In this document: positions 14,585 to 39,184 of the stretch, one piece after another
Layout: every line of letters starts with the position of its first letter
Numbering within the stretch: the first letter of the stretch is position 1
NCBI GenBank assembly: GCA_963663965.2
Contig: CAXXFK010000030.1
Coordinates: forward strand, 128,001-192,000
Length of the DNA: 64,000 nt
Direction: 5' to 3'
Source: Sedimentisphaerales bacterium
GTDB taxonomy: Bacteria > Planctomycetota > Phycisphaerae > Sedimentisphaerales > SM23-30
Notes under the pieces: generated by a model
What the model saw: the letters and a program-made list of their open reading frames with translations, nothing else
Databases searched by the model: none
What the model was told of the DNA's origin: nothing
Position numbers and translations under genes: made by a program

Positions 14585-14932
14585 TACAATTTCCGTAAAA
14601 AATTCACAAACCACCCCAGGGTCTTCTATTTCTGCCATACCGACCATCTGGGCTCCTCAGCCATCATGAGCGACCGCGCCGGGGCCCTTGTCAATCAATA
14701 TGGCTACCGGCCCTTCGGCGCCGATTGCTCCCCGGCCTTCTCCGGCCTGACCCTCTCGCAACGCTTCACCGGCCAGACTTACGATGAAGCCATCGGACTC
14801 TACTACTATCAATCCCGCTATTACGATCCGGCCATCGCCCGATTCATCCAGCCTGACTCGATTTTACCTTCCTTCGGTTCTCAGGGACTTAACCGCTACA
14901 GTTATTGCTACAACAATCCGCTTAAATATACA
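14585..14932 (+). pseudogene. Orphan RHS repeat-associated core fragment ending just before DPxG
   Basis: HTDHLGS...YGYRPFG...RFTGQTYD...LYYYQSRYYDP...RFIQPD...LNRYSYCYNNPLKYT. Confidence 0.85.
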
Positions 14933-23573: not shown

Positions 23574-24362
23574 TTGAGAAAGGCTGTTGACATTCAGGTG
23601 ATCTTGGTGGGAATGCTCTGTTGGGCGCTGACGCTGTTCTGTGTGGGGTGTGGTCGAGAGCAGGCGGAGGCGGGCGCGGGGACGGTGATAGTTTTTGCGG
23701 CGGCCAGTACGACCAACGCGGTGATGGATATCGCGGCGAAGTTTAAGGAGGAAACGGGGATGGAGGTGGTGACGAATTTCGCATCCGCTTCGACCCTGGC
23801 GCAGCAGATCGAAGCCGGCGCGGATGTGGATGTTTTTATTTCGGCGAATGAAAAGTGGGGTGATTACCTGGAAGAAAGAGAGCTTTGTGTGGTTCGTAAA
23901 ACGATTGTGGGCAACCGGATCGTGATTGTGGCGGCGGCGGACACGGGCCGGACGGTTGAGTCGCCGGAATTTTTGCTGGATGAGGCGGTTCAAACGGTGG
24001 CCATGGGTGATCCGGAGCATGTGCCGGCGGGGATATATGGCAAAGAAGCGCTGGCGCGGCTGGGGTTGTGGGAGTCGGTGGCCGGCAAGGTGACGGCGGC
24101 GAAGGATGTGCGTTCGGCGTTGGCGTATGTGGAGACGGGGGCGGCCGAGGCGGGGATAGTGTATTCGACCGACGCGGCGATCAGTGCGAAGGTTCGTGTG
24201 GTTTATCAGTTTCCGGCGGACGCGACGGCCCGGCCGATAGCGTATCCGGCGCTGATGATTAAAAACGCGGTGAATCCGGAGGGGGCGCGTGAGTTTTTGG
24301 CGTTTCTGGAGAGCGAGACGGCTCGCGCGGTTTTTAGGGAGTATGGATTTCTGATCGATTGA
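23574..24362 (+). CDS. modA: Molybdate ABC transporter substrate-binding protein
   Basis: VFAAAS, ASTLAQQIEAGA.DVFISA, GDP.HVPAG.Y and AGIVYSTDA. Confidence 0.92.
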   Translation: MRKAVDIQVILVGMLCWALTLFCVGCGREQAEAGAGTVIVFAAASTTNAVMDIAAKFKEETGMEVVTNFASASTLAQQIEAGADVDVFISANEKWGDYLEERELCVVRKTIVGNRIVIVAAADTGRTVESPEFLLDEAVQTVAMGDPEHVPAGIYGKEALARLGLWESVAGKVTAAKDVRSALAYVETGAAEAGIVYSTDAAISAKVRVVYQFPADATARPIAYPALMIKNAVNPEGAREFLAFLESETARAVFREYGFLID

Positions 24363-24372
24363 CGAGATCAAG

Positions 24373-25056
24373 ATGATATTAACACCGGAAGAATTCAGCG
24401 CGCTTAAGCTCAGTACGGTTTTTGCCTTGATGGCGGCGACCCTGGGGATTGTTCCGGCGATTGGAGTTGGGTACTGGCTGGCGCGGAGCCGGGCGGGATG
24501 GAAATGGCTGGTGGAGGCGGGGGCGAATCTGCCGCTGGTGCTGCCGCCGGTGGTGACGGGGTATCTGTTGCTGCTGCTGCTGGCGCCGTCGGGGCCGATC
24601 GGGGGGCTGTGCACGCGGCTGGGGTTTAAGGTGATCTTTACGCCGTACGCGGCGATCCTGGCGGCGATGGTGGTGAGTTTTCCGCTGGCGATGCGGACGG
24701 CGCGACTGGCGTTTGAATCGGTGGATCAGAAGCTGGAGCAGACGGCGCGGACGCTGGGGGCGACGCGAATGGAAGTATTTCGGCAGGTCTCTTTGCCGCT
24801 GGCGCGGTATGGGATTATCGGGGGGTGGCTATTGGCCTTCGCTCGGAGCCTGGGCGAGTTTGGGGCGACGATTATGATTGCGGGGAATATTGCCGGGAAG
24901 ACCCAGACGATTCCGCTGGCGATTTTCGCGAAGGCGACGCAGCCGGGCGGGATTCAGCAGTCGTGGCGGCTGGTGATGCTGTCGATTGTGGTGTCGTGTA
25001 TTGCCATCGCGCTGGGTGAGCGGCTGGGCCGCAAGCGGAAGGGGAGGGCCGGTTAG
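24373..25056 (+). CDS. modB: Molybdate ABC transporter permease
   Basis: LPLVLPPVVTGY and FARSLGEFGAT. Confidence 0.92.
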   Translation: MILTPEEFSALKLSTVFALMAATLGIVPAIGVGYWLARSRAGWKWLVEAGANLPLVLPPVVTGYLLLLLLAPSGPIGGLCTRLGFKVIFTPYAAILAAMVVSFPLAMRTARLAFESVDQKLEQTARTLGATRMEVFRQVSLPLARYGIIGGWLLAFARSLGEFGATIMIAGNIAGKTQTIPLAIFAKATQPGGIQQSWRLVMLSIVVSCIAIALGERLGRKRKGRAG

Positions 25057-25083
25057 CGGTGATGGATGTGAGGCAAGCCAAGT

Positions 25084-25824
25084 GTGATTATTATGAGGGC
25101 GATGATGCTGCTTGATCTGCGCTGTCAGCATGAGTTTTCCGACCATTTCGGGATCGATGTGGACCTGTCCTGTGAGGTTCGTGCGCTGGCGCTGTTTGGT
25201 CCATCCGGCAGCGGCAAGACGACGCTACTGTCGGCGATCGCGGGGACTTTTATGCCGCGGCGCGGCCGGGTGGCGCTGGATGGCCAGGTTCTGCTGGATA
25301 CTGAGGGGGGGCGGTGTGTGCCGCCGGAGAGGCGTTCGATCGGGGTGACGCCGCAGCATTCGCTGCTGTTTGAGCATATGGATGTACGGAGGAACCTGGA
25401 ATATGGGATGCCGAAGAACCGGTGGTGGAAGCGGCATTCGTCGCTGGTCTGCCAGCGGGAGATCCGGTTCGATCAGGTGGTGGAGATCCTGGAGCTGGAG
25501 CGGTTGCTGGGGCGTTTTCCGGAGCATCTTTCGGGGGGCGAGCAGCGGCGGGTGGCCATTGGGCGGGCGCTGCTCAGTCAGCCGCGGATGCTGATTCTGG
25601 ATGAGCCGCTGTCGGCGCTGGATGATAACCTGAAGCAGCGGATACTGGATTATCTGAAACGGGTAATCGAGCACTGGCAGATCCCGACGATTATCATTAC
25701 GCACAGCAAGGCGGTGGTGGGCGCGCTGGCGGATAGTGTGATTATGGTGGATGGTGGCCGGATTATCGGGATGGGGGCGCCTGGGCGGATGCTGGGGGTG
25801 GCTGAGGTCAAGACGGCGGGGTGA
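25084..25824 (+). CDS. modC: Molybdate ABC transporter ATP-binding protein (start uncertain)
   Basis: GPSGSGKT, LSGGE and LILDEP. Confidence 0.88.
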   Translation: MIIMRAMMLLDLRCQHEFSDHFGIDVDLSCEVRALALFGPSGSGKTTLLSAIAGTFMPRRGRVALDGQVLLDTEGGRCVPPERRSIGVTPQHSLLFEHMDVRRNLEYGMPKNRWWKRHSSLVCQREIRFDQVVEILELERLLGRFPEHLSGGEQRRVAIGRALLSQPRMLILDEPLSALDDNLKQRILDYLKRVIEHWQIPTIIITHSKAVVGALADSVIMVDGGRIIGMGAPGRMLGVAEVKTAG

Positions 25825-25970
25825 GTTGTAAGTGGTTTTATCTTCGGTGGATATGGGTGATTTTGGTTTGATTGGGTTCGTTTGGATTGGGGTGGGGGGC
25901 GGAGAGGTTGTTCGGAGAATTGGGCGGCCCAGATATCAGGTAGAGGTTGTTGAGGAAGGTGGGAACTGGT

Positions 25971-26346
25971 GAACCACGAATGGATATGAATACACGCTAA
26001 CAAAGAGTTGGAGACTAACAATATGGGTTTAAAATATAACGGCCGATTGAACCACGAAGCGCCTTCCTGGGGCGGATCTTCGGCCCTCCTGAGGCGGATC
26101 TTCGACCTACGGCGCTACATGAAGGTTAACAAAAAATATAACGGCCGGTTTAACCGCAGGTGGACGCAGATAAAATATTGATAAGCTATTGAAATATAAG
26201 AAGATATAACCACGGAAAAACACGGAAAGACACGGAAGAAATCAGGGTTAAGAAGTTAAAATCAAAGAAGATGGAACTATAGAAAGGGGCGAAAATAAAG
26301 AGTGGCTGCGCCACGAGTTAAATTTTTAAAGGCAGGGTTTTACCAT
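25971..26346 (+). repeat. Array of triplet repeat units with nested hairpins; continues at 27993-28100 after the IS110
   Basis: aaccacgaatggatatgaat, tataacggcc..aaccacgaag, aaccgcaggtggacgcagat and aaccacggaaaaacacggaaagacacggaa. Confidence 0.8.
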
Positions 26347-26470
26347 GAAGATATCATGAAAGCCAGAATGTCCCGTTGCGGTGGTTCGTGCTATAATGCA
26401 CATTTGTTGTATATGAACACGAGCTGCCCGGGGGGCGCTCATGACACCTTTTTACAGGAGCATTCTGGCT

Positions 26471-27526
26471 ATGAAGACTATTATGGCAATTGATTTAGGA
26501 AAATTCAAGAGTGTAGCGTGTCGTTATCAAATTGGCAGCGGCGCCCAGGAATATTGGACGATTCCCACCCGTCCGCAGGCGATTCACGATCTGGTGGTGA
26601 CTCATTCGGCCGATTGTGTGGTTTTCGAGGCCTGTGGTATCATTGGTTGGATCTGCGATTTATTGGATGATTTGGAGATTGATTATCGAGTGGCCAATAC
26701 CAATAGTGAGGAGTGGCGGGGTAAACGCCTGAAAAAGAAGACGGATCGCAAGGATGCGCTGTGGCTGGCCCGTCGGACGGCACTGGGCGATCTGCCGACC
26801 GTCTATGTGCCGGGTAAGGCGGTGCGCGAGAAACGGGCCTTGATTAATGAACGGAAAAGTATCGTCGAACGAATAACACAATGCAAAAACACCATCCGGG
26901 CGCTGCTGGATCGTCAGGCCCTGCCGATGCCTTCCGGCAAAAACGGCTGGTCGCAAAAACAGATCGCCCATTTGCGGAGTCTGGCCTGTCCCATGGCCGA
27001 GGTGCCGGTGGAGGCGCTCTGGCGTGGCAGCTTGTGGGTGGAATTGGAGTTATTGCACACTCTGGGCGAATTGTTGTTGGTGATCGACAACAAACTGCAT
27101 GCCCTGAACCAAACGGACCGGCACGTGCAATTGCTCACGACCATTCCGGGCGTGGGCGAACGGACGGCCGAAGCGGTGGCCGCTTTAATCGATAATCCCC
27201 ACCGGTTTCAGAACTGCAAGCAGGTGGGCTGCTATATCGGTATGACCCCGCGCCAGTATCAATCGGGAACGATCGACCGGCAGGGCCGCATCAGTAAGGA
27301 TGGCAATCGTTTGCTGCGAAGTCTGCTGGTGGAGATCTGCTGGCTGGGCCAGCGAACCAATCCGTGGATACGAGAAACGTATCAGCGGATCCGGCGCGAC
27401 AGCAAGACACGCTCCAAGATAGCGATTATCGCGGTGGCGCGGCGGTTGTTTGTGCGGATGTGGGCGATGTTGCGCGATGGGACGCCCTGGCAGATGCCGC
27501 CGCTGAAGGCTGCCGTATCCGGATAA
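26471..27526 (+). CDS. IS110 DEDD recombinase/transposase
   Basis: AIDLGK, VFEACG, KTDRKDA, TIPGVG, GMTP..YQSG (catalytic Ser) and AVARRL. Confidence 0.95.
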   Translation: MKTIMAIDLGKFKSVACRYQIGSGAQEYWTIPTRPQAIHDLVVTHSADCVVFEACGIIGWICDLLDDLEIDYRVANTNSEEWRGKRLKKKTDRKDALWLARRTALGDLPTVYVPGKAVREKRALINERKSIVERITQCKNTIRALLDRQALPMPSGKNGWSQKQIAHLRSLACPMAEVPVEALWRGSLWVELELLHTLGELLLVIDNKLHALNQTDRHVQLLTTIPGVGERTAEAVAALIDNPHRFQNCKQVGCYIGMTPRQYQSGTIDRQGRISKDGNRLLRSLLVEICWLGQRTNPWIRETYQRIRRDSKTRSKIAIIAVARRLFVRMWAMLRDGTPWQMPPLKAAVSG

Positions 27527-27968
27527 AAAATACGTTTTGATCGCGTACCGTTCTTTGACTGATTTTAACGAATGCTTAGATTTTGCTTGATTGACATCGA
27601 TATGGAACCTTGTTTCACTTGATGGGTCTAGAGCCTGACGTGAAGATTAAGCCGTATCGTAAACGATGGAATGGGACCATGGTAAAAAAAGAAGACCTGG
27701 ACACCCCGGATAGAAGGCTGAAACAATCGAGCATTTTATCGAATAAAAATAAGGATTCGCTGCGCGAAAATTTGTTTGATCAGGTTTATCGCTTATCGTC
27801 CAAAAAGGCAGGAGGGGCGGCGTAGGTACGCCGCCTGCCTTCCCGGACCCCTTGACGGCGCTCAGGTCGCTCCTCAGCGTTGCCTTATCCTCCGCAAGGG
27901 CAAGGACAGGATAACATGTTTTGAAATAAGGAAATACAATAAAATGCCATATAAACCACTTTTCCCTC
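27527..27968 (+). ncRNA. Candidate bridge/seek RNA region (exact bounds unknown)
   Basis: About 440-nt non-coding right end of an IS1111-like element, with short matches to the target and element-end sequences. Confidence 0.5.
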
Positions 27969-28216
27969 TTGACCTCTGGCTTCATAGAAGATTGTGAAGG
28001 GCATGAAGTTAAGAGGAAGAATTAACAGCCGGTTTAACCGCAGATGGACGCAGATGAAACAGCCGGGGTTTACCATCTGGGGCGGTCAAGCCGCAAGCTT
28101 AAATGAGTTTGTGGGGTTAAGATTAACGAATTGCTCGAATGTAGCAACACGAATCAATATCAAGATGGTCAAAAGGCTGGTATAATTCCTGGCAGACGTC
28201 GGCGACCTATTTCAAT

Positions 28217-29086
28217 ATGTATGACCGGCTGGGCAGTATCCGGATTGTTTTTGACTGGAATGGCGATGTGGTCAATCAGTTTAATTACAATGTTTATGGC
28301 GAGCCTACGCAGGAATTGTTTGTTGAAAATGGTTCGCTTTACAGCAGCTGCTATAACAGCTATCACCGGTTCGCCAATTATAAATGGGATGCCGCCGTCG
28401 GTATGTACGACTGCAACGCGCGGTGGTATGATCCGGTAATCATGCGGTTTACGGGGCGGGATCCGGTTCGGGGTGATTTTAATGAGCCGTTGAGTCTGCA
28501 CCGGTATTTGTATTGTGTGAATGAGCCGGTAAACATTATCGATCCAGCAGGTTTAGAGGGGAATTTATCTGAGTTAAATTTTACACAAGGCGTACAAAAT
28601 GGTATGCGCGCATATGGTGCTGCCGATCAAGCTCACCAAGTATATGGTTATGTTGAAATGTTTACCAGTGGATTATCATTAGGCAATATAATGCTAACTG
28701 TTGCAATTGATGTGGGTATGGATTATGCTGGTGGCAAAGTATTTCAAGCGTTAGCAGATGTTCGTGGCGGAGTGATGAGTTGGATTCGAGCTAAAGGACT
28801 ATATGGTGAAGTTGCATCAGGTATAGCTAAGAATTCTAAACATATAGATTCTATTACAGGAAGTGCGCATTATCGTATCCCTGATGAATTAACTAAGACA
28901 TCATTGACTGAAGTAAAAAACGTAAAAAAATTGAATTATACAAAGCAAATCGAGGATTTTATTTTATATGCTAACGAAGAAAATTTAACGTTTACTATTA
29001 GGTTAAATAGTGGTTGTAAAAAAATTGCTAAGCGAATAAAAGAATTAGAAAAGGTTGGTGGGATAATTATTGACTATTATGACTAA
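28217..29086 (+). CDS. Orphan RHS core + C-terminal restriction-endonuclease-fold toxin (Tox-REase-7-like)
   Basis: DRLGS, ARWYDP...RF...DP, Y.YCVNEPVNIIDPAG, then RIPD...EVKNV..L.YT.QI.D. Confidence 0.85.
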   Translation: MYDRLGSIRIVFDWNGDVVNQFNYNVYGEPTQELFVENGSLYSSCYNSYHRFANYKWDAAVGMYDCNARWYDPVIMRFTGRDPVRGDFNEPLSLHRYLYCVNEPVNIIDPAGLEGNLSELNFTQGVQNGMRAYGAADQAHQVYGYVEMFTSGLSLGNIMLTVAIDVGMDYAGGKVFQALADVRGGVMSWIRAKGLYGEVASGIAKNSKHIDSITGSAHYRIPDELTKTSLTEVKNVKKLNYTKQIEDFILYANEENLTFTIRLNSGCKKIAKRIKELEKVGGIIIDYYD

Positions 29087-29164
29087 GTACACTTCTAAAA
29101 ATATAAAATCAACCCAGTAGGTAAAAACATCTTAAACTAAAGAATTGATTAGGTATGCAAAATA

Positions 29165-29914
29165 ATGGAGAATGAAAAAAAAAGTAGAGAAGAATATTTA
29201 GAAGATATTGAAGAAGCTGAACGACCTGTCCTTGAAAGTTTAAAACTGATAGGGATTGAAATAGATGATATTTCTGATTTGATTAACAAATATACAGATT
29301 TGCCTGAGGATGTCGTTTGTGTATTATTAAAATGGTTGCCGGCAATCAAACAGCACAATATTCAGAATATGGTAATACGGGCTATTGGTAATACCAAATG
29401 TAAATATGATGGCATGCCTTTGGCAACACTGTTTGAAAAATCGGATGGGATTCGTAATAACCGCTGGGCCATTGCTAATACGATAGCTATCTCTAAACCA
29501 ATGCATATTAACGAGTGGGTAACAACTGCAGTAAAAAATAAAAAATATGGCAAATCTCGTGAAATGCTTTGTGATGCAATCGCAAAAATGCTGTCGTACG
29601 GTGAGGCTGTTGCTGTGTTACAGGCGGTGTTTGATGATTTGCCGGCTCATAGCGCTATTGCGTTAGGCAGAATTGGAAAAGAATCTTCTGTGAATGAATT
29701 TCTGGAACGGAAGAAAGCGGAAATTGAAAACGAAATTAGCCTTGAGCGATTTGGTAATGACTGCAAGTTTATACCGCAAGAAAATGTGTCTTATGCCTCG
29801 AGCCTGCCAATATCGATCAGTGAGGAGGAACTGAGGAGAAACTATCTGAAGTTGAGTTTGAAAACGATAGGAAAGGCGATCCGAAAAATTGAGAAACGGA
29901 TTGAAAAAAAATAG
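29165..29914 (+). CDS. Putative cognate immunity protein (HEAT-like helical)
   Basis: Directly downstream of the toxin and AT-rich. Helical motifs RWAIANTI and AIALGRIG. Confidence 0.6.
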   Translation: MENEKKSREEYLEDIEEAERPVLESLKLIGIEIDDISDLINKYTDLPEDVVCVLLKWLPAIKQHNIQNMVIRAIGNTKCKYDGMPLATLFEKSDGIRNNRWAIANTIAISKPMHINEWVTTAVKNKKYGKSREMLCDAIAKMLSYGEAVAVLQAVFDDLPAHSAIALGRIGKESSVNEFLERKKAEIENEISLERFGNDCKFIPQENVSYASSLPISISEEELRRNYLKLSLKTIGKAIRKIEKRIEKK

Positions 29915-29941
29915 TTTAAGCTTATTAAGTGCCATTGGGAT

Positions 29942-30409
29942 CAGGGACCATTTAGGTTGACATGGCGCTGATATGGTGCCAGAATAGGGTGATCATGCCA
30001 CGAGCTAGACGCAAAAGTTATGGCGGTTATCTTTACTATATGTTTAACCGGGCGAATGGCCGGCTGTGGATTTTTCGCAAGGCCGGCGATTTTGCGGCGT
30101 TTGAGGCTATACCCGGCCAGGGCCAGGAGCGGACGGGGAGAGGATGAGGCGTATTTGAATTGCCGAGGGGGTTGGGGAAAGGCGGGAGATAAGGGTTGAG
30201 CATATAACGGCCGGTTTATCCGCAGATGATGCAGATAAAAATTAGTTAAGATATTGAAATATAAGAAGATATAACCACGGAAAAACGCGGAAAGACACGG
30301 AAGAAAAGCAGGTGGCTGCGCCACGATTTAAATGGGTTATTACCACAGAGGTCAGGAGGGCACAGAGGATGAGGAGCAGGGAAGAGTAAAAGCTTTTTAG
30401 ACAGGATCA
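29942..30409 (+). repeat. Duplicated block A (REP motif, RAYT promoter, RAYT 5' fragment, triplet repeats); second copy 33750-34217
   Basis: Near-identical by eye, including the same RAYT truncation point gagcggacgggga|gaggatgagg. Confidence 0.9.
29995..30147 (+). pseudogene. RAYT transposase 5' fragment
   Basis: MPRARRKSYGGYLYYMFNRANGR... matches the N-terminus of the 31519 gene. Confidence 0.85.
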
Positions 30410-30683
30410 CAGGATTGACAGGATTTAAGAAAAGAGGGTTGGGAAAATATAATGGCAGGGTTAACCGCAGATGGACTTAGGGCGGTCAAGCCGCAACGCC
30501 AAAAACAGCTCACACCAAGCCCCAGAAAAACAGCCGGTTTAACGCAAAGACGCTAAGGTGCAAAGGGTGGGCAACGGCTGGGAGAGTCAATAGTTGACGG
30601 AAGGCGCAAAGTGATATAAGTTTTTGTTTTAAAAGATCAGCTATTCTCCAACACAACAAACTTCGCTAAAATAACAAAGAATT

Positions 30684-31016
30684 GAAGGATTGTAGTACGG
30701 AAGGAAATATCATACATTTTCACCGTATAGTAAGTGAAGGGAGTCCCGATGAATATCGGGATAAATTCCGGAACGGCCGAAGAGATGAAAAAAGCACGCT
30801 GAAGCGAACTCCGAACGGGCCGGGAACTGGCAGCCCGCCTGAGGCGGATCTTCGACCCTTCGGGCTTCACTGATGTGAATGTGGGTTTATTGATATTGTG
30901 AGATTGATGGGATTGCAGGCCGAGGAAAAGGGAGGAGATGAGAATTGAAAAAAAGATAACTGGGGGTGATGGGCGATTGCGGGGGAGGGCAACCACGGGG
31001 GGTTGCCCGTACGTGG
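30684..31016 (+). repeat. Duplicated block B (hairpin-rich MITE-like element plus REP); second copy 34617-34942
   Basis: gaaggattgtagtacggaag...cttcgggcttcactgatgtgaatgtggg...gggcaaccacggggggttgcccgtacgtgg in both copies. Confidence 0.88.
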
Positions 31017-31036
31017 GGGATAAAGATACGGTATAG

Positions 31037-31441
31037 GGCATATTTATCAGGGGCGATTTAAGAGCTTTCCGATTCAGGGGCAGATATCGGGAACCTCTAA
31101 AAATTCATTCAGGGCTGCAAGCGGTCTGGTTCTCCTCTGGACGGCGTCACAAAAAAACCGTGAATATTGTCAAATAGGCCCGGTTCTTTGTTCCTTGCCA
31201 GAGAAAGACCATCCTCGCTTTCGCCTCTAAAGCAATTTTTAGAGATACCCTATATTATGTGACGGCGATGCGATATGTCGAAGGCAATCCGTTGCGGGCC
31301 GGACTTGGTGAAGGATGCGGCGGATTGGCCCTGGAGCCGCTATGGCCGGCATGCGGGCGACGCCGGCCGGGATACGCCGATTACCCTGAGCGAGTATAGC
31401 ACGCCTCTGCCGGAAAACTGGGTTAGACTGGTTCATGCTAA
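31037..31441 (+). pseudogene. Internal RAYT fragment interrupted by a MITE
   Basis: 31037-31085 matches about 31810-31858, and 31253-31441 matches about 31861-32048. Confidence 0.85.
31089..31250. mobile_element. 162-bp MITE
   Basis: TIRs GGGAACCTCTAAAAATT / AATTTTTAGAGATACCC. Splits an otherwise contiguous RAYT sequence. Confidence 0.85.
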
Positions 31442-31459
31442 ACTCGACGGGTTGGGTTG

Positions 31460-31511
31460 AAAGGGGTCAGGAACCATTTAGGTTGACTTGGCGCTGATAC
31501 GGTGCCAGAAT
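31460..31511 (+). promoter_or_regulatory. Left REP motif plus sigma-70 promoter of RAYT
   Basis: AAAGGGGTCAGGAACC followed by TTGACT-17 nt-CAGAAT. The copy at 29957 reads TTGACA-17-CAGAAT. Confidence 0.65.
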
Positions 31512-31518
31512 GGGATAT

Positions 31519-32193
31519 ATGCCACGAGCGAAACGCAAAAGTTATGGTGGTTATCTTTACCATGTGCTCAACCGGGCGAATGGCCGGCTGCGTATTTTTC
31601 GCAAGGCCGCTGATTTTGCGGCGTTTGAGGCCATACTCGGCCAGGGCCAGGAGCGGACGGGGATGCGGATCTGTGGGTATTGCCTGATGGGCAATCACTG
31701 GCATCTTCTGTTGTGGCCGCGGCATGACGGGGAGCTGTCGGAGTATATGCGATGGGTGACGGTCACGCACACGCAGCGGTATCATGCCGCCCACCGCAGC
31801 GCCGGTACGGGCCATATTTATCAGGGGCGATTCAAGAGCTTTCCGATTCAGGGGCAGATTTATTATGTGACGGCGATGCGATATGTCGAAGGCAATCCGT
31901 TGCGGGCCGGACTGGTGACGGATGCGGCGGATTGGCCCTGGAGCAGCTATGGCCAGCATGTGGGCGGCGCGGGCAGGGAGACCCCGATTACCCTGAGTGA
32001 ATATAGCACGCCGCTGCCGGAAAACTGGGACAGAGTGGTTCATGCTAATCTCAGTGAGAAGGATTGTGAGCGTTTTCAAAACGCGATCCGGCGGGGCTGT
32101 CCGTTGGGAGATGCGGGCTGGACAGAAAAGATTGCCGCCCAATTCGAGTTAGAGTCGACTCTGCGGCCCAGAGGAAGGCCGAGATCGACTTAA
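31519..32193 (+). CDS. REP-associated tyrosine transposase (RAYT/TnpA-REP, Y1 HUH)
   Basis: YHVLNR, CLMGNHWHLLL (HUH), GHIYQGRFKS, RYVEGNPLRAG (catalytic Tyr), WPWSS and RPRGRP tail. Confidence 0.93.
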   Translation: MPRAKRKSYGGYLYHVLNRANGRLRIFRKAADFAAFEAILGQGQERTGMRICGYCLMGNHWHLLLWPRHDGELSEYMRWVTVTHTQRYHAAHRSAGTGHIYQGRFKSFPIQGQIYYVTAMRYVEGNPLRAGLVTDAADWPWSSYGQHVGGAGRETPITLSEYSTPLPENWDRVVHANLSEKDCERFQNAIRRGCPLGDAGWTEKIAAQFELESTLRPRGRPRST

Positions 32194-32242
32194 AAGGTTC
32201 CTGACCCTTTTACTCTCTGACCCTTTTACTCTTTTACTGACC
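32192..32242 (+). repeat. Right REP motif, inverted relative to 31460, with tandem CTGACCCTTTTACTC echoes
   Basis: aaaaggttcctgacccttttactctctgacccttttactcttttactgacc. Confidence 0.8.
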
Positions 32243-32441
32243 TAGTGGAAAAATTGGATTGCTTGGCAATAGTATATTAGGTTATCATATGGATACTAAT
32301 GCAACCTATGCTATGGGAATATCTCAGATAGGAGTGTCAATGACCTTATTAGAAGCTGCTTCAGGTTTGTCAGGGGGCAATTTGGGTTCGGGTGCTGAAG
32401 CAGCGGCTACAGCTTGGGTAGATTATTGGGCTAATCTTTAG
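32241..32441 (+). pseudogene. Probable orphan RHS C-terminal tip beginning at (D)PSG
   Basis: actga-cct-agt-gga-aaa reads PSGKIGLL...; one extra C would give TDPSG. Short Gly/Ala-rich hydrophobic peptide. Confidence 0.5.
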
Positions 32442-32495
32442 GCATGAAACATTTGTCTCCGCAATATTTTCATTCGTCCAATAAGGGAAATATGT

Positions 32496-32951
32496 ATGAT
32501 TAAAAGAAAACACAAAAAGAGTTTAATTTGGGATGGGATTTTTTGGGTTATGATTTTATATATATTTTTATATTTTATGGAAAATCTGTTTGAAAATTAT
32601 TTCTGTGTCACTATTCCAGATTTTGTTACAGTAATTTTGTGCCATGCATTCATGCTGGTTTATTTATTGGTATCAATTCGTAATATTCAAAATAGAAATA
32701 CCAATACCAGCCTAACCGAGAAGGTAGAATCATCACCAAAACTTAAAATCCTGAATGTAATATTAATATATATTTGTATTGTTATATTTTGTATTTTAGG
32801 AAATTATTTTTTCTCCATTTTTATTGATGTTCCCAGGCTTGACCAACTTAGCATGGTGTCTTTTCCGCTGGTATTTGTTTGCTTATTATTTTCAAAGTAC
32901 TTATCAGTAGATAGCCTAAACAACGATTTACACGTTAGCAATAAAAAATGA
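32496..32951 (+). CDS. Four-TM membrane protein, candidate immunity
   Basis: Four hydrophobic segments, very AT-rich, follows the putative tip. Confidence 0.55.
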   Translation: MIKRKHKKSLIWDGIFWVMILYIFLYFMENLFENYFCVTIPDFVTVILCHAFMLVYLLVSIRNIQNRNTNTSLTEKVESSPKLKILNVILIYICIVIFCILGNYFFSIFIDVPRLDQLSMVSFPLVFVCLLFSKYLSVDSLNNDLHVSNKK

Positions 32952-33059
32952 GATTAAGTAATAAACTTCCAATTGGGTTTAAGTATTATTTGTTTCACCA
33001 GCCTTTCTCCTCAACCAATCTTATTGGGCTCTTTGAGTTCCAAGAATTCAAGAATTAAA

Positions 33060-33122
33060 GAAGTCAGGAACCCTTAAGCTACCGCCATTTGTTCCTGACC
33101 TCTTTAAAATCGACCCCTTTAA
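33060..33122. repeat. Inverted REP pair between cassettes
   Basis: gtcaggaac...gttcctgac followed by gacccctttaa. Confidence 0.7.
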
Positions 33123-33205
33123 ATTCTCCCCGATTCAATTCGTGAAGAATACCGAGTATTGAGTTATAATGAAATAAAAGCACTTGCAAAAGAAATGTTT
33201 AATAA

Positions 33206-33718
33206 ATGACTATAAATAGCCTTACAGTTGAAGAGTGTAAAAGTCAGATAAATAAGTTGATTGGACTACCGATGAGTCGTGCAATTGCAGGCATCAATAC
33301 GGGTTCAGTTGTATCGTTTGATTTCGGAAAAATAACAAAAATGCCTTTTGAATTTCAGAAGAATAAAGCTCATTTCCGTGGTGAGATTTGCATGATGGTG
33401 TGCTGCCCTTGGCGGATTGAAAGCGATACAAATATTGTGTGTGGTTCAGGAGATTCGAACGAAAAAAAAGGACCGATGATTAAAGGATTAGATGACCTTA
33501 AAGGAAAATATGTTCAGGAAATAATGTTTAATACATTTCTTGATATTTCAATAGTATTTGAAGGTGGTTATGTGTTAAAGGTATTTTGCGATAATATTTC
33601 GGATGATGATTATGAAAGTTGTTACTTTTTCCTTTTCGAGGAGGATCTTCTTTGTGTTTCGGTAAGAGGAAATGGTAATATTTGGTCCGATGAAATTGTA
33701 AGAGACAACAGAAAATGA
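33206..33718 (+). CDS. Hypothetical protein, candidate orphan immunity
   Basis: AT-rich, with GSVVSFDFG...CPWRIE motifs. Its ATG overlaps (ATGA) the stop of a start-less 28-codon remnant at 33123-33209. Confidence 0.6.
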   Translation: MTINSLTVEECKSQINKLIGLPMSRAIAGINTGSVVSFDFGKITKMPFEFQKNKAHFRGEICMMVCCPWRIESDTNIVCGSGDSNEKKGPMIKGLDDLKGKYVQEIMFNTFLDISIVFEGGYVLKVFCDNISDDDYESCYFFLFEEDLLCVSVRGNGNIWSDEIVRDNRK

Positions 33719-33802
33719 GGGGAATTAAATGGAGAGGAATTAAAGTAGGCAGGAACCTTTTAGGTTGACAGGGTGCTGAGATGGTACCTGGATAGGGTGA
33801 TC

Positions 33803-33955
33803 ATGCCACGAGCAAAGCGCAAAAGTTATGGCGGTTATCTTTACCCTGTACTCAACCGGGCGAATGGCCGGCTGCGGATTTTTCGCAAGGCCGGCGATTT
33901 TGCGGCGTTTGAGGCCGTTCTCGGCGAGGGCCAGGAGCGGACGGGGAGAGGATGA
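33803..33955 (+). pseudogene. RAYT transposase 5' fragment
   Basis: MPRAKRKSYGGYLYPVLNRANGR..., with the same truncation as the 29995 copy. Confidence 0.85.
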
Positions 33956-35127
33956 GGCGTATTTGAATTGCCGAGGGGGTTGGGGTAAGGCGGGAGATAA
34001 GGGTTGAGCATATAACGGCCGGTTTATCCGCAGATGATGCAGATAAAAATTAGTTAAGATATTGAAATATAAGAAGATATAACCACGGAAAAACGCGGAA
34101 AGGCACGGAAGAAAAGCGGGTGGCTGCGCCACGATTTAAATGGGTTATTACCACAGAGGTCAGGAGGGCACAGAGGATGAGGAGCAGGGAAGAATAAAAG
34201 CTTTTTAGACAGGATCATCCCGATCCCGATGGCTCGGGATTTCGCTTTGCTCAATATCCGGGACTTTCAGCCGATTGACAGGATTAAATGGGAATCCATA
34301 TAAAATATAACAGCCTTATGAACCGCAGATAAACGCAGATGGACGCAGATAAAAACTGGTTTATGTTATTATAATAAAAGAAGTTAGAATCACGGAATAT
34401 GCGGAATACCTGGGGCGGGCAAGCCGCAACCCAATTAAACAGCTGAACCACGAATCCCGATGAATCGGGACGAATGGACGCGAATAAGAGCCAGAGGCCT
34501 GATCAGGATATCGTTTAAAACTGAAACTTCGATTCAACCAGGAAAGCAATAACTTGTTTTTCAATAAATGGTTATCAGTTCAAAGACAAATAAACACGCA
34601 TAAAAAACAAGAATATGAAGGATTGTAGTACGGAAGAAGAAAATATCATACATTTTCACCGTATAGTAAGTGAAGGGAGTCCTGATGAATATCGGGATAA
34701 ATTCCGGAACGGCCGAAGAGATGAAAAAAGCACTGAAGCGTGAACTCCGAACGGGCCGGGAACTGGCGGTCCGCCTGAGGCGGATCTTCGACTCTTCGGG
34801 CTTCACTGATGTGAATGTGGGCTGATTGATATTGTTAAATTGATGGGATTGCAGGCCGAGGAAAAGGGGGGAGATGAGATTTGAAATAAAGATAAATAGG
34901 GGGAAGGAAAAGGGCAACCACGGGGGGTTGCCCGTACGTGGAGGATGGGATTTGGGGGATTGCGTGGCGGCACGGACGGGCACGGACGGAACACGGACAA
35001 ACACAGGATGGGGATGGAGGGGGGGATGGATTTTGGGGATTGCGTGGGGGTGGGGGTTGTGGTACAACTGGGGGGTGTTTTTTTGTGTGGTAGACATTAT
35101 GGATAGGCGAATTTATGCATAGACAGG

Positions 35128-36772
35128 ATGGCTGTTATGAAGATGATTGGATTGAACAGGCGGATGGCGGCGGTCTGTGGGCTGATGATGGTGATGATTG
35201 GATCGGTGTGGGCGGAACGGGTGCGGGTTGGGGGTGGTGAGTTGGAAGGAACGATTAATCAGGATAGCGGGATATTTGAATTTAAGGGGGTGCCGTTTGC
35301 TCAGCCGCCGGTGGGCGAGTTGCGCTGGCGGGAGCCGCAGCCGGTGACCGGCTGGGAGGGTGTGCGGCGGGCGGACCAGTTCGGGCCGCGGGCGATGCAG
35401 TTATCGGTGTTTGGCGATATGAAGTTCCGGTCGGATGGTATGAGTGAGGATTGTCTGTATCTGAATATCTGGACGCCGAAGCTGGGCGCAGGCGCGAAGC
35501 TGCCGGTGCTGGTGTATTTTTATGGCGGGGGTTTCATTGCCGGTGCTGGATCGGAAGGGCGGTATGATGGGCATAGTATGGCGACGAAGGGGATGGTGGC
35601 GGTGACGGTGAATTACCGGCTGGGAGTGTTTGGTTTTTTCGCGCATCCGGAGCTGTCGAAAGAGTCGGCGCAGGGAGCGTCGGGGAATTATGGATTGCTG
35701 GATCAGGCAGCGGCGTTGAAATGGGTGTATGAGAATATCGCAGCGCTGGGTGGGGATCCCAAACGGATTACGATCGCGGGTGAATCGGCCGGCTCGATTT
35801 CGGTGAGCGCGCAGCTGGTGTCGCCGCTGTCGAAGGGGATGATCGCCGGGGCGATTGGGGAAAGCGGTTCGATCCTGGGGGCGTTGCCGGCGATCCCGCT
35901 GGCGGAGGCGGAGGTGAAGGGTTTGGAACTGGCCAAGAAGCTGGGCCAGGATGGGGCGTTGTCATTGGCGGCGCTACGGGCGATGGATGGCGAGACCTTA
36001 TTGGGGAGGTGACGAAGGCGGGCTTCATGTGGTTTAATCCGACGGTGGATGGTTATCTGCTGCCGGAGGATCCGTTTGCGTTGTACGCGGCCGGTCAGCA
36101 GGCGCAGGCGCCGCTACTGGCGGGAGTGAATTCGCAGGAGTCGGATTATAAGGCGGTGTTGGGTAACGCGGAACCGACGGTGGCGAATTATCGCGCGGCG
36201 CTGGAGCGGCTGTACCCGGGTCAGGGCGAGCGGTTGTTTGAGGTGTATGGCGCGGCGACGGAGGATGAGGTGATGGACGCGGCGATGGCCCTGGCGGGGG
36301 ACCGGTTTATCAGTCAGAGCACCTGGCGGTGGATCGACCGGGTGACGAAGACGGGCGCTCAGAAGACGTTTTATTACCTGTATGCCCGGCCGCGGCCGGT
36401 GATGCGGGCGGAGATGGGCAATCTGATCGCGGGTCTGGCCGGGGGTGTGATGAAGAATCCGGATCCGCAGGCCAAGCCGCAGCCCCAGTCGCGCGGCGCA
36501 GTGCATTCGGCGGAGATCGAATACGCGCTGGGGAACCTGGGTTATAATGAGCGTGTATGCCTGGACGGAGGAAGATCATGAGATTTCGCGGCAAATGCAG
36601 GCGTACTTTGTGAACTTTATCAAGACGGGGAATCCGAACGGGGCGGGATTGCCGGAGTGGCCGGTGTTCAAGAAGGGACAACGGCTGGTGATCGATGTGA
36701 AGACGCCGCGCGGAGAGCGTTGAACGGTTGCGGAAGCGGTATGATCTGCTGGAGGAGCTGGCCAAGCCATAA
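35128..36772 (+). pseudogene. Type-B carboxylesterase split by three frameshifts (pseudogene or sequence error)
   Basis: FKGVPFA.PP, SEDCLYLNIW, GESAG and GAVHSAEIEY. Continuations VYAWTEED...NFIKTGNPNG and RLRKRYDLLEEL lie in shifted frames near 36005, 36550 and 36710. Confidence 0.85.
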
Positions 36773-36814
36773 GGGCGGATTGAAGAGACAACAACGCCGG
36801 GTGATACCCGTCGA

Positions 36815-39184
36815 TTAGAAGCGGTAGGCCAGGCTCAGGCCGATGGCGGTGGCGTGGCTGCGAAAGGCGCCGCTGGAGAGGTAGTTGCGTTTGTTGAAAT
36901 CATCGTTGAACAGGCCGAGCAGGTTGTAGCCATCGATGCGGCAGGTGAGGTTTTCGATGGGTTGATATTGCAGGCCCAGGTTGAGATAGTAGTTGCCGCG
37001 ATAGCCGCGCTGCCAGTCCGGTTCGACCGGGGCCAGGCCGCCTGTGGAGGCGTAGCGGTATTCGTTGTAGTCTTTGAGGCCGGGGAAGCCCCAGTAGACG
37101 CGCATGGAGCCATCCAGGGTCCACTGGTCATTAAGTTGCTGATGGGCGGTCAGTTTGGTGATATGGTTGGACCAGAGGGTCAGGTCTTTGCCGTAGCCAT
37201 AGGGGTAGGCAGAAATTAAGGTATCGGCATTATCGCCCAGGTTGAAATCATAGAGTTTGGTAAAGCCGTGCGAGAGACCCAGCCGGGTTCGTTGCGTATG
37301 ATAATACGCTTCGAGGTCCAGGCCGTAATCGCGTTGCGTGCCGACATTGACCACGCTGGCGCTGGCATCGCTGTAGCCCATCAATTCCAGGTTGTAATGG
37401 ACAAAGGGATTGACGGCCACGTCGAAGCGATCGTTGCACTTTCGTTCGTAGCGGAATTCGAGGCTGTCGAGTTTTTCGGGGGCGCTGTCCGTGGCGCCAT
37501 CCAGCATGTTGGCGACTTTCATTTCCTCTTCGAAGTTGGAGCGGACGGAGCGGGCCCAGATCCATTTGAGGGTATCTTTTTCGGTGGGGGTATATATCAA
37601 CGCGCCGCGCGGTGAGAACATCGGATCGGTGTAGGTGTGTTTATCGATCCGGGCGCTGATGAAGGTGGTCCATTGATCGGAGAGGGTCCACTGGTGTTCG
37701 CCCATGGCGGAAACCAAATTGGTGGACCATTGGGGCATATCCAGCTGGTTACCGGAGAACCGTTCGGTCGTCGAATCGCCATTCTGCGGCCAGGCGAGGC
37801 TGTCCAGGCCCAGTTCATTGTGGGCGAGTTCGCCACCCAACGCGATTTTATGATGGTCGTTAATCTCCCGGCGATAGATGGCCTTGAGCTGATAGCGGTC
37901 TTCGCGGTAACAGTGGGCCAGGGCGTCCTGTGTCCAGATTTCGGTATCGGTGAGGGTGTAGCTGAACGAGGTGTCGAGGGTGGCGTTGTCTGACAGTTCC
38001 GTATTTTTTCCGGCGAACAGGGTGGCCTGCTGATACCCGTATCCCTGTTGCTGCAGCGGCTGAACCCAGTCGGCCCAGCCGTAGGGGTCGCGAGCCAGGA
38101 CCCCGTTTTCCCAGACCATCTGTTTACCGCCGAGGGTGTAACGGCCCCAGAAGGTCCAGTCCTCGCGTTTGATTTCGGTATAGAGTTTCATGGGCGGGAC
38201 GCCGCGATGCGATTCGCCGTCGTTGTTCAGGCCAATGCCGAGCATGGGATCGCCGGCCCGGGTTCCATCACCGGGCAGGTGGGCCGGTCCGGTATTGACG
38301 CCCCAATCCGGATTCCACCAGGAGTAGTTGGATTCGGTGGGGAAATCAAAGCCGTAGATCTGCGGCGCGTCGTGGGTGGTGGCGCCGTTATATTTGCCGA
38401 TCCCGAGATAAAGGAACAGACCGCCGCCGCCATCGTTAAACTGGCGGCCGTGGCGGATTTCGGTGGAATAGAATTCTTCGATGATGCCGGCGCGCGTGGT
38501 GATATCGGTGCCCTGGAAGGTATCGGAGTTGAAGGTGGTAATATTGATGACCATCGAGACGGCGCCGGGTCCGTAGAGCGAGGAACCGGGCCCGCGGACG
38601 ATGTCGATATGATGGATGTCTTTCAGGTGAACAAGATCTTTTTCGGTCAGGGCGCCATAATGGGTTCGTTCATTCATCATCACCCCATTGACCAGGAGCA
38701 GGTATTTATCATCCCGGTCGCCCATAATACCGCGCAGGCCCATGACATCGGCTTCCCAGTTATGCCGTCGCCATTGCAGGTTGGGGACGTAGATGTCGAG
38801 CAGTTCGAACAGGCTGCGGGCGCCGGCGGCCTGGATATCCTCGGCGGTGATGGTGGTGACGGCGGCGGGGGCCAGGCGGGGGCTGACCGAGGTGAGTGAG
38901 GCTGACGATCCGACTTCCACCTGCATCAATTCCTCCAGGGACATATCCAATAAATCGGCGCTGGCGGCATCATCCCGGGTTGGACGGTTTTGTTCGGAAT
39001 CGATCGTATCGGACGATGTGGTTTGTGCAGATGCCATTGAAGTGATGGATAGTAATTGTGGCACTGAACCGAAAGTGAACAAGATCCAGCTGATCAGCAG
39101 GGCGAACCCGCAAAGGATTCGGTGGGGATTCTGTGACAGCAAGCAGTGTTTTTTGCCGGTAATCCGGTTGACTGGGTGGCTCAT
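36815..39184 (-). CDS. TonB-dependent receptor
   Basis: LLDMSLEELMQVEV, plug motif IDIVRGPGSSLYGPGA..VINI and C-terminal LAYRF. Confidence 0.9.
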   Translation of the reverse strand: MSHPVNRITGKKHCLLSQNPHRILCGFALLISWILFTFGSVPQLLSITSMASAQTTSSDTIDSEQNRPTRDDAASADLLDMSLEELMQVEVGSSASLTSVSPRLAPAAVTTITAEDIQAAGARSLFELLDIYVPNLQWRRHNWEADVMGLRGIMGDRDDKYLLLVNGVMMNERTHYGALTEKDLVHLKDIHHIDIVRGPGSSLYGPGAVSMVINITTFNSDTFQGTDITTRAGIIEEFYSTEIRHGRQFNDGGGGLFLYLGIGKYNGATTHDAPQIYGFDFPTESNYSWWNPDWGVNTGPAHLPGDGTRAGDPMLGIGLNNDGESHRGVPPMKLYTEIKREDWTFWGRYTLGGKQMVWENGVLARDPYGWADWVQPLQQQGYGYQQATLFAGKNTELSDNATLDTSFSYTLTDTEIWTQDALAHCYREDRYQLKAIYRREINDHHKIALGGELAHNELGLDSLAWPQNGDSTTERFSGNQLDMPQWSTNLVSAMGEHQWTLSDQWTTFISARIDKHTYTDPMFSPRGALIYTPTEKDTLKWIWARSVRSNFEEEMKVANMLDGATDSAPEKLDSLEFRYERKCNDRFDVAVNPFVHYNLELMGYSDASASVVNVGTQRDYGLDLEAYYHTQRTRLGLSHGFTKLYDFNLGDNADTLISAYPYGYGKDLTLWSNHITKLTAHQQLNDQWTLDGSMRVYWGFPGLKDYNEYRYASTGGLAPVEPDWQRGYRGNYYLNLGLQYQPIENLTCRIDGYNLLGLFNDDFNKRNYLSSGAFRSHATAIGLSLAYRF

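Follow-up and report, generated by a model that had tools for sequence, protein, structure and literature searches.

The window analyzed here is the whole stretch of 64,000 nucleotides (nt) at positions 128,001 to 192,000 of contig CAXXFK010000030.1 (contig C30 below) of a Sedimentisphaerales bacterium (assembly GCA_963663965.2). It contains a toxin island at ~25830–35100, between the gene of an ABC-transporter ATPase, which ends at 25821, and a carboxylesterase gene, which starts at 35128. Three cassettes of orphan toxin and immunity genes are found in this island, and copies of a small transposase element of the TIRtron type lie between them. The motif that recurs at the cassette edges is the terminal inverted repeat of this element, and we favour an exchange of the cassettes between paralogous loci by homologous recombination, with the element copies as shared homology. 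The features of the array, in window coordinates, are as follows.

28145–29086, + strand: cassette 1 toxin, an orphan RHS core tail (TIGR03696, 56.6 bits) fused to a Tox-REase-7 domain (PF15649, 5e-15)
29165–29914, + strand: cassette 1 partner, a predicted immunity protein of 249 amino acids (aa), so named from its position
29934–31460, + strand: psi-1, a broken TIRtron, delimited by tblastn pieces, direct repeats and an inverted pair
31455–32218, + strand: intact TIRtron (PF01797 at 4e-11), with the left inverted repeat at 31460–31475 (its GGGGTCAG box at 31463–31470), the TIRYT gene at 31510/31519–32193 and the right inverted repeat at 32196–32216
32201–32242, + strand: tandem half-end echo of the right end (outer half), with a 16-nt unit present twice (32201–32216 and 32217–32232) plus a partial CTGACC (32237–32242)
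32241–32441, + strand: cassette 2 peptide, a 66-codon Gly/Ala-rich frame without a core tail, bounded upstream by the TGA at 32238–32240
32496–32951, + strand: cassette 2 partner, a predicted immunity protein of 151 aa with four hydrophobic stretches (judged by eye)
33052–33120, no strand: gene-less pair of element ends, left-like at 33057–33078 and right-like at 33091–33120
33123–33209, + strand: cassette 3 start-less 28-codon frame, running from stop to stop directly after the gene-less end pair
33206–33718, + strand: cassette 3 partner, a predicted immunity protein of 170 aa with an ATGA overlap with the 28-codon frame
33738–34946, + strand: psi-2, a broken TIRtron at the right edge of the array, with its left end at 33742–33763 and codons 1–51 at 33803–33949, followed by a J-repeat insert of the psi-1 type (repeat 92%)

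The intact element reads as a TIRtron of 760 bp, in which a RAYT-like Y1/HUH gene of the TIRYT type lies between terminal inverted repeats of 16–24 nt. TIRYT genes are RAYT-like genes (RAYT stands for a tyrosine transposase associated with REPs, which are repetitive extragenic palindromes) flanked by terminal inverted repeats with GGGGWSAS, and their loci have been described as TIRtrons (Di Nocera et al., 2013; PMC3733652). They were equated with subclass 2.1 of TnpA-Y1, with a median length of 238 aa and the motif Y---NP (Quentin et al., 2018; PMC6006769). The product of 227 aa (31510–32193) contained a Y1_Tnp domain, an HUH-type motif in NHWHLL and the tyrosine motif Y---NP in RYVEGNP, and both motifs aligned with the matching stretch of the E. 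coli TnpArep 4ER8 (E 3.8e-5). The combination of HUH and Y---NP is the one given for RAYT class 2 TnpA-Y1 in PMC6006769, and the score against the NCBIfam RAYT equivalog NF047646 was 63.4 bits, under the cut-off of 80. Subclass 2.1 is reported there with a C-terminal domain resembling helix-turn-helix (HTH) proteins (Bac_DnaA_C, HTH_23, or HTH_28); residues 141–227 of our protein had no Pfam match even at E 10. The IS200/IS605 family (subclass 1.1), which has a TnpA of ~150 aa with Y---Q, subterminal hairpins and many near-identical copies, was ruled out by the length of 227 aa, the Y---NP motif, the terminal inverted repeats without significant hairpins, and copies that are up to 9% apart at the nucleotide level.

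The inverted pair around the gene spans 27 nt at 85% identity. The GGGGTCAG within the left end agreed with the published GGGGWSAS box, and the right end read AGGGTCAG in the window and GGGGTCAG in the copy on contig C28. Orthologous elements of other genera carried like ends (AATTAAAGG[TG]GTC...). A promoter scan found a promoter-like TTGACT-17-CAGAAT just inside the left end (31483–31511). The ratio of non-synonymous to synonymous substitution rates (dN/dS) between copies was 0.12–0.18 at dS 0.11–0.35, including the copy on contig C22, whose left end is damaged; the TIRYT gene is thus under purifying selection. No target motif or target-site duplication was found in the aligned flanks of copies and orthologues, where no empty site could be defined.

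The motif GGTCAGGAACC was matched at 31465 (+ strand, no mismatch), 32196 (− strand, no mismatch), 33062 (+, one), 33090 (−, one), 29939 (+, two), and 33747 (+, two). All six sites listed by an earlier reading of the letters alone, hereafter the sequence-only reading (~29940, 31460, 32196, 33063/33090, and 33750), were therefore present. The window as a whole held 19 matches at up to two mismatches, near the chance expectation of 13.4 ± 3.6, and the two-mismatch sites 29939 and 33747 are counted only because 52–300 nt of flanking sequence align with the intact copy. Sites 29939, 31465, and 33747 were the upstream ends of three gene copies, 32196 was the downstream end of the intact copy, and 33062/33090 formed the gene-less end pair, so that the window contains the element once intact and twice broken, together with one end pair without a gene. 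RAYT-like HUH gene copies and inverted ends do sit between the cassettes, as had been proposed under the name of RAYT copies. A motif repeated at every cassette edge can, as a caution, be merely the ends of one interleaved gene element.

In psi-1, the order was left end, codons 1–51 (29995–30141), a J-repeat insert (30142–31029), codons 99–117, a miniature inverted-repeat transposable element (MITE), and codons 116–182. The MITE-like insert, of 163 nt with imperfect inverted ends of 40 nt, lies at 31087–31252; blastn gave 50 matches genome-wide, of which ~20 covered nearly the full length with an identity of about 90%.

Four intact copies were detected by tblastn, in the window and on contigs C11 (100% amino acid identity), C22 (97%), and C28 (95%). 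The profile search of the 7.24-Mb genome returned 16 ends, six in the window, five in C11, one in C22, two in the C28 toxin locus, and two elsewhere, which placed 14 of the 16 in four toxin loci. At E values up to 1, this search yielded no end beyond the training set or C11 duplicates. One outlying end, C28:242111, was inside an open reading frame (ORF) of 439 aa and is probably a chance match; the other, C1:76933, was intergenic beside small membrane ORFs. All eight exact 12-mers were ends of the four intact copies, and the exact 11-mer occurred 12 times against ~3.5 expected by our own arithmetic. A right-end remnant related to the gene-less pair was located at C11:14481–14519.

Folding separated the single ends from the gene-less pair. 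Single ends on either strand had energies of −3.1 to −6.3 kcal/mol (z −0.7 to −2.1), equalled by 7–46 of 200 shuffles, whereas the gene-less pair formed one long hairpin (DNA fold −12.1 kcal/mol, z −5.07, 0 of 200 shuffles equal). The sequence-only reading had taken the motif for a REP. Because single ends fold no better than shuffles and are few and clustered, with 16 copies in 7.2 Mb and 14 of these in four loci, and because they are the element's own terminal inverted repeats, this assignment does not hold.

All three of the AT-rich cassettes proposed earlier were recovered in place, with GC contents of 0.26–0.36, compared with 0.55–0.60 in the transposase gene. In cassette 1, the core tail ended in DPAGL at 28541–28555. 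Only this cassette combined a core tail running to DPxGL, a toxin domain and a downstream immunity gene, as expected of an orphan RHS cassette, and the genome-wide list of RHS tails contained none at cassettes 2 and 3, whose toxin and immunity roles are presumptive. The 249-aa partner in cassette 1 had no Pfam or NCBIfam family; Atlas features matched HEAT_2 clusters at 0.96, which serves as a lead only, and a 99.6% identical copy was present in C11.

The cassette 2 peptide is predicted to be a small membrane-active toxin or a toxin tip. Its homologues were a 66-aa protein with 49% identity (E 3.4e-6), whose start lay one residue earlier, and a protein in a metagenome-assembled genome (MAG) of Gimesia with 53% identity, clipped by the contig start. 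Since the closest relative also has 66 aa, the boundary of this frame may belong to the peptide module. The peptide had no match in 400 genomes of the class and 400 of the phylum, and no relative was confirmed in the metagenome scan; the genome scan gave three loci, of which only that in the Gimesia MAG was convincing. Three of the four matches from the representative library were set aside as repetitive proteins matched in several stretches. The 151-aa partner matched no family. In the Gimesia MAG, a membrane ORF of 153 aa followed the peptide homologue at equal spacing, and the two partners were weakly similar (32% over 38 aa, at a pairwise E of 0.001).

The 28-codon frame in cassette 3 may be the C-terminal remnant of a toxin gene. 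Its 170-aa partner found only itself among 5.8 billion clusters and no Pfam or NCBIfam family, and Atlas returned unnamed clusters only (0.93).

At the junction of the intact element and cassette 2, the string at 32236–32249 reads as described previously, and the TGA within the partial CTGACC closes the frame ahead of the cassette. The sequence-only reading had interpreted CTGACC(C) as a mimic of the (T)DP codons at the RHS core/toxin junction. The string is instead part of the tandem half-end echo, and a like echo was found in orthologous elements of other genera, at the right end in L034, L037, L039, and L041 and at the left end in L033, all with housekeeping neighbours. This indicated that the echo belongs to the element family and not to toxin junctions. 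The one true DPxGL junction of the window, in cassette 1, was coded GAT CCA, not GAC CC, and only one toxin tip in the genome abutted the echo in this way.

The comparison of paralogous loci revealed where the exchanges had their boundaries. The window and C11 had no differences over 29400–32216, and the identity ended at the right end of the element, beyond which the C11 cargo was different (ORFs of 275 and 124 aa). Within the core tail, 62 differences in 28200–28400 formed a mosaic patch between the same two loci. The homology between the window and C22 reached from 27987 to 28555, where the DPAGL L codon lies, and set in again inside the element, with unrelated tips and immunity genes in between. 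Exchange between paralogous loci thus has its left break at DPAGL, in line with the exchange of tips at DPxG that the sequence-only reading cites as established, and its right break at the element. The element copies of C30 and C22 showed no differences over ~420 aligned nt, and their flanks were 7–12% divergent. In its 5′ part, the C22 copy differed from psi-1 at 1 of 60 positions, compared with 7 of 58 from the intact copy of the window. Element copies on different contigs are therefore mosaics produced by gene conversion. When contigs of public reads (runs X1 and X2 of one sample, possibly the source sample) were compared with 25800–35300, neither a different order of the cassettes nor an excision junction could be made out; these contigs break at repeats, and the joints listed for them are accounted for by the C22-type locus or by repeat modules at other places. 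Just upstream of the RHS tails of C22 and C11, there was a multicopy element of ~1 kb (L002:7128–7913 in C22; C11:22673–23456), with an ORF of 261 aa and a low-complexity Pro/Asn-rich tail, for which tblastn found ~15 genomic places.

The intact copies of the element are restricted to toxin arrays in this genome. All four were 1.5–3.4 kb downstream of an RHS core tail, and the cassettes ahead of them carried REase-7, AHH with Imm11 and a PT-HINT tip, and Ntox46. Among other insertion sequence (IS) genes, one of four IS110, none of 15 DDE_Tnp_1, and one of 11 rve genes were within 5 kb of an RHS tail (2 of 30), as were none of the seven other Y1 genes. The hypergeometric probability for four out of four, calculated by hand, was 1.5e-4, or ~1e-3 with the C30/C11 duplicate counted once. 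Seen from the arrays, the picture was different: the element was near 4 of the 28 RHS tails, and the C22 array, with more than 10 ORFs, had one element and no further ends. The enrichment beside RHS genes that the sequence-only reading expected was thus found for the intact copies and not for the arrays, and the ends are not a general punctuation of cassettes, with 24 of the 28 tails lacking the element.

Homologues of the TIRYT protein (42–64% amino acid identity, E up to 1e-20) were present in 23 of 40 relatives. The gene context was sampled at 20 loci in 11 relatives with sufficiently long contigs, using greedy ORF sets against Pfam; G010, G018, G016, G008, G040, G024, and G020 had short contigs and fall outside this count. 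A recognisable toxin context was observed at two of the 20 loci, L026 (RHS tail, Imm40, and a second RHS tail) and L029 (RHS tail and a tip with a TNT domain), and a third, L030, is possible, with a match to DUF2247 alone, which we take to be an immunity-type family. All three belonged to G019, the other multicopy genome, with nine element matches. The remaining 17 loci had housekeeping or IS contexts, such as groES/EL and EF-G genes. Elsewhere, therefore, the element behaves as an ordinary TIRtron, placed tightly between housekeeping genes at most loci.

At two of these 17 loci, in two different genera, the element was less than 2 kb from gyrA (L032 in G035 and L036 in G005); in single-copy genomes, its position may thus be inherited and domesticated-like. 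In G019, L025:8576–11596 contained, in tandem duplicate, a 185-aa ORF without a family together with a TIRtron, and the left flanks were identical. A second RAYT-like subfamily, at ~30% identity, was co-oriented inside orphan RHS arrays of two other members of the order, in L051 (G027:C375:1–6000) and L050 (G031:C1:3356000–3370000). These two genomes were picked because coordinates suggested adjacency, among the 150 of 271 RHS matches that were listed.

It is fairly probable that the cassettes have been exchanged between paralogous loci by ordinary homologous recombination. The left homology arm would be the RHS core tail up to DPxGL, and the right arm would be an element copy, whether intact, broken or gene-less, lying between cassettes. 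The swaps would be made by the host recombination system and not by the HUH enzyme, and extra copies may persist because the arrays consist of dispensable DNA that passes by copying from one array to another. The breakpoints at DPAGL and at the element, together with the identical tract of ~420 nt, indicated that homologous recombination suffices. The sequence-only reading had suggested that RAYT/REP recombination may capture or shuffle tips and immunity genes; nothing found here requires HUH catalysis, and gene conversion is directly visible.

Several observations weigh against recombination between paralogues as the full account. The ends of the element lie ~10–45 nt from cassette edges in the window, C22, and C11, and 5′-truncated toxin frames start right at right ends (window 32241 and 33123, and L003:12106); homologous recombination alone does not explain these tight edges and truncated frames. 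The enrichment relative to other IS families (four of four versus 2 of 30) exceeds what a plain junkyard would lead one to expect. C30, C11, and C22 share one core tail, so that two or three associations in this genome, not four, are independent. The purifying selection hints at a function beyond passive residence, and RAYT-like genes of the second subfamily are found within orphan RHS arrays in G027 and G031. Furthermore, the evidence for swaps comes from paralogous loci of one genome, not from close relatives.

The first alternative is that the element is a selfish, site-preferring TIRtron with no role in exchange, which inserts in short spacers downstream of co-oriented genes. Cassette edges would then be places where insertions are tolerated, and extra copies would survive only in dispensable arrays. 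In G019, near-identical copies are found inside an RHS array (L026) and also, at a distance of 10 kb, with a sigma-70/FecR pair on one side and a GFA gene on the other (L027); the element thus moves independently of toxin DNA. The placement in intergenic spaces is tight in housekeeping contexts too, with the right end of L027 ~10 nt from the ribosome site of the next gene, and the toxin association is seen only where the element is multicopy, in this genome and in G019; an IS110 element and a MITE have also landed in the island. However, selfish insertion leaves unexplained the 100% identical 2.8-kb block shared with C11, the shared arms around unrelated cargo in C22, and the mosaic between element copies, and neither an empty site nor a target motif or duplication speaks for it. 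We regard this explanation as unlikely.

An active TIRYT appeared similarly doubtful. The enzyme would cut at inverted ends and half-end echoes, join or transpose the DNA between ends, and so capture, truncate and move tips and immunity genes as cassettes bounded by ends; the system would be an analogue of integrons or rAID-1 that uses single strands and HUH chemistry. In its favour, the cassettes of the window are each bounded by a right end on their left side and a left end on their right side, the truncated frames begin exactly at right ends, and the very recent identity of the window and C11 stops within ~2 nt of a right end. Purifying selection acts on all three diverged copies, even that of C22, gene and cassettes share one orientation at all four loci in this genome and likewise at L026, L050, and L051, and such genes are again associated with RHS arrays in G019, G027, and G031. 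However, an exchange inside two identical element copies would make the boundary look end-precise, and gene conversion among copies is visible. The scarcity of the element among RHS tails and in the C22 array also speaks against such activity, most relatives hold the element and a like echo beside housekeeping genes, and the codon-mimicry argument draws on a single junction. The portion of PMC3733652 available to us reports no TIRYT activity.

The joint claim that orphan toxin/immunity slots have taken over RAYT-like HUH enzymes for their recombination, cutting single-stranded DNA at ends and echoes, joining in foreign tips and immunity genes, and truncating the toxin while the immunity gene is kept, seems improbable. 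If it were true, Phycisphaerae would have an HUH-based counterpart of integrons and rAID-1, and a RAYT/TIRYT gene would have its first cellular role. A literature search, supplements aside, found no published link of RAYT or TIRYT to Rhs or polymorphic toxins. For the host role of RAYT/TIRYT genes, a multicopy family that is under purifying selection and, in one genome, confined to toxin arrays offers a concrete place to look for activity.

The recombination between paralogues that we favour would have taken place in an island that has received other insertions and is framed by repeats. Two further features were recognised at its left edge.

25830–26352, resuming at 27987–28144, no strand: J-type short-period repeat modules, delimited by repeat comparison
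26353–27986, + strand: IS110-family element, with an ORF at 26441–27526 that matched Transposase_20 and DEDD_Tnp_IS110

The IS110 element was not present in the C11 paralogue, where 26232–26352 and 27987 onward are directly joined, and a 100% identical copy of its protein was found on C23; it is a recent insertion into the repeat modules. Purine-rich short-period modules (e.g., CGCAGATGGACGCAGAT, CACGGAAAGACACGGAAG, and GAGGCGGATCTTCGAC) occupied 25950–26352, 27987–28144, 30142–31029, and 33950–35100. They border the island and interrupt the two broken transposase copies at one and the same codon, and their cores occurred 4–41 times each across the genome. Modules such as CGCAGATGGACGCAGAT also adjoin the left edge of cassette 1 at ~28130, where triplet repeats had been noted before.

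No full-length RHS gene was present among the flanking large ORFs scanned, and Phage_integrase had no match in 11 frames of the island and its left edge or in 14 flanking ORFs, all of at least 40 aa. Rfam matched nothing in 25800–35200 at E up to 1. A separate RHS core tail with an open frame of 141 aa was located 13 kb upstream, at 14705–14932 (+ strand). On the right, the carboxylesterase gene consisted of two ORFs (35128–36012 and 36009–36581) that matched successive parts of the COesterase profile, and a frameshift may account for the split. The GC skew was unusually strong (0.12–0.23 over tens of kb) in window positions 24000–38000 and in C11, C22, and C28; the G-rich strand was the coding strand of all four intact copies and of a distant gene on C13, and likewise of most genes there, so that this orientation carries no weight.

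Among known systems, the rAID-1 arrays of orphan immunity genes in Bacteroidales contain a XerD-family tyrosine recombinase and repeats between genes (bioRxiv 10.1101/471110). The present array resembles them, as they are outlined there, and integrons in its co-oriented orphan immunity genes and toxin fragments, skewed GC content, recombinase-type gene and repeated intergenic sequence. However, its enzyme is of the HUH/Y1 type, its repeats are that gene's own ends, and these ends separate cassettes only in the window and partly in C11, not in most arrays. A recombination repeat shared by most cassettes of an array, as in integrons and rAID-1, was seen in the window, whereas such repeats do not lie between most cassettes in C22 or beside 24 of the 28 RHS tails. 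A dedicated tyrosine recombinase of the IntI or XerD family was not found among the frames and ORFs scanned.

REPtrons, in which a RAYT is associated with REPs, bacterial interspersed mosaic elements (BIME) or REPINs (4ER8; PMC6006769), have a homologous enzyme and a gene bracketed by inverted cognate copies, and the hairpin of the gene-less end pair resembles a REPIN. They differ in that the ends here are neither palindromic hairpins nor dispersed, with 16 copies, and in the NF047646 score below the cut-off. The likeness is closer to TIRtrons as described by Di Nocera et al. (2013), with a RAYT-like Y1 gene of ~230 aa carrying HUH and Y---NP, terminal inverted repeats with GGGGWSAS, occasionally dimeric ends, and a small family of ends. 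Class 2 genes are described as low-copy, whereas this genome has four intact copies (91–100% nucleotide identity) and broken ones. In addition, all copies here are in polymorphic-toxin arrays, the right end has tandem half-end echoes, and the C-terminal HTH-like domain of subclass 2.1 was not detected by Pfam.

The array can also be compared with the orphan arrays of Rhs C-terminal toxin tips (rhs-CT). Orphan rhs-CT/immunity arrays are built by C-terminal displacement in E. coli, Salmonella, and Serratia. Cassette 1 conforms to this type in its core tail to DPxGL, nuclease tip and downstream immunity gene, and the C22 exchange breaks at the L codon of DPAGL. Cassettes 2 and 3 depart from it, as they are without a core tail and start at an element end, and the flanking large ORFs hold no full-length parent rhs. 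The right exchange boundary here is a transposase element, and for orphan cassettes away from a parent rhs, a boundary formed by a mobile-element copy would be a simple way of seeding new loci.

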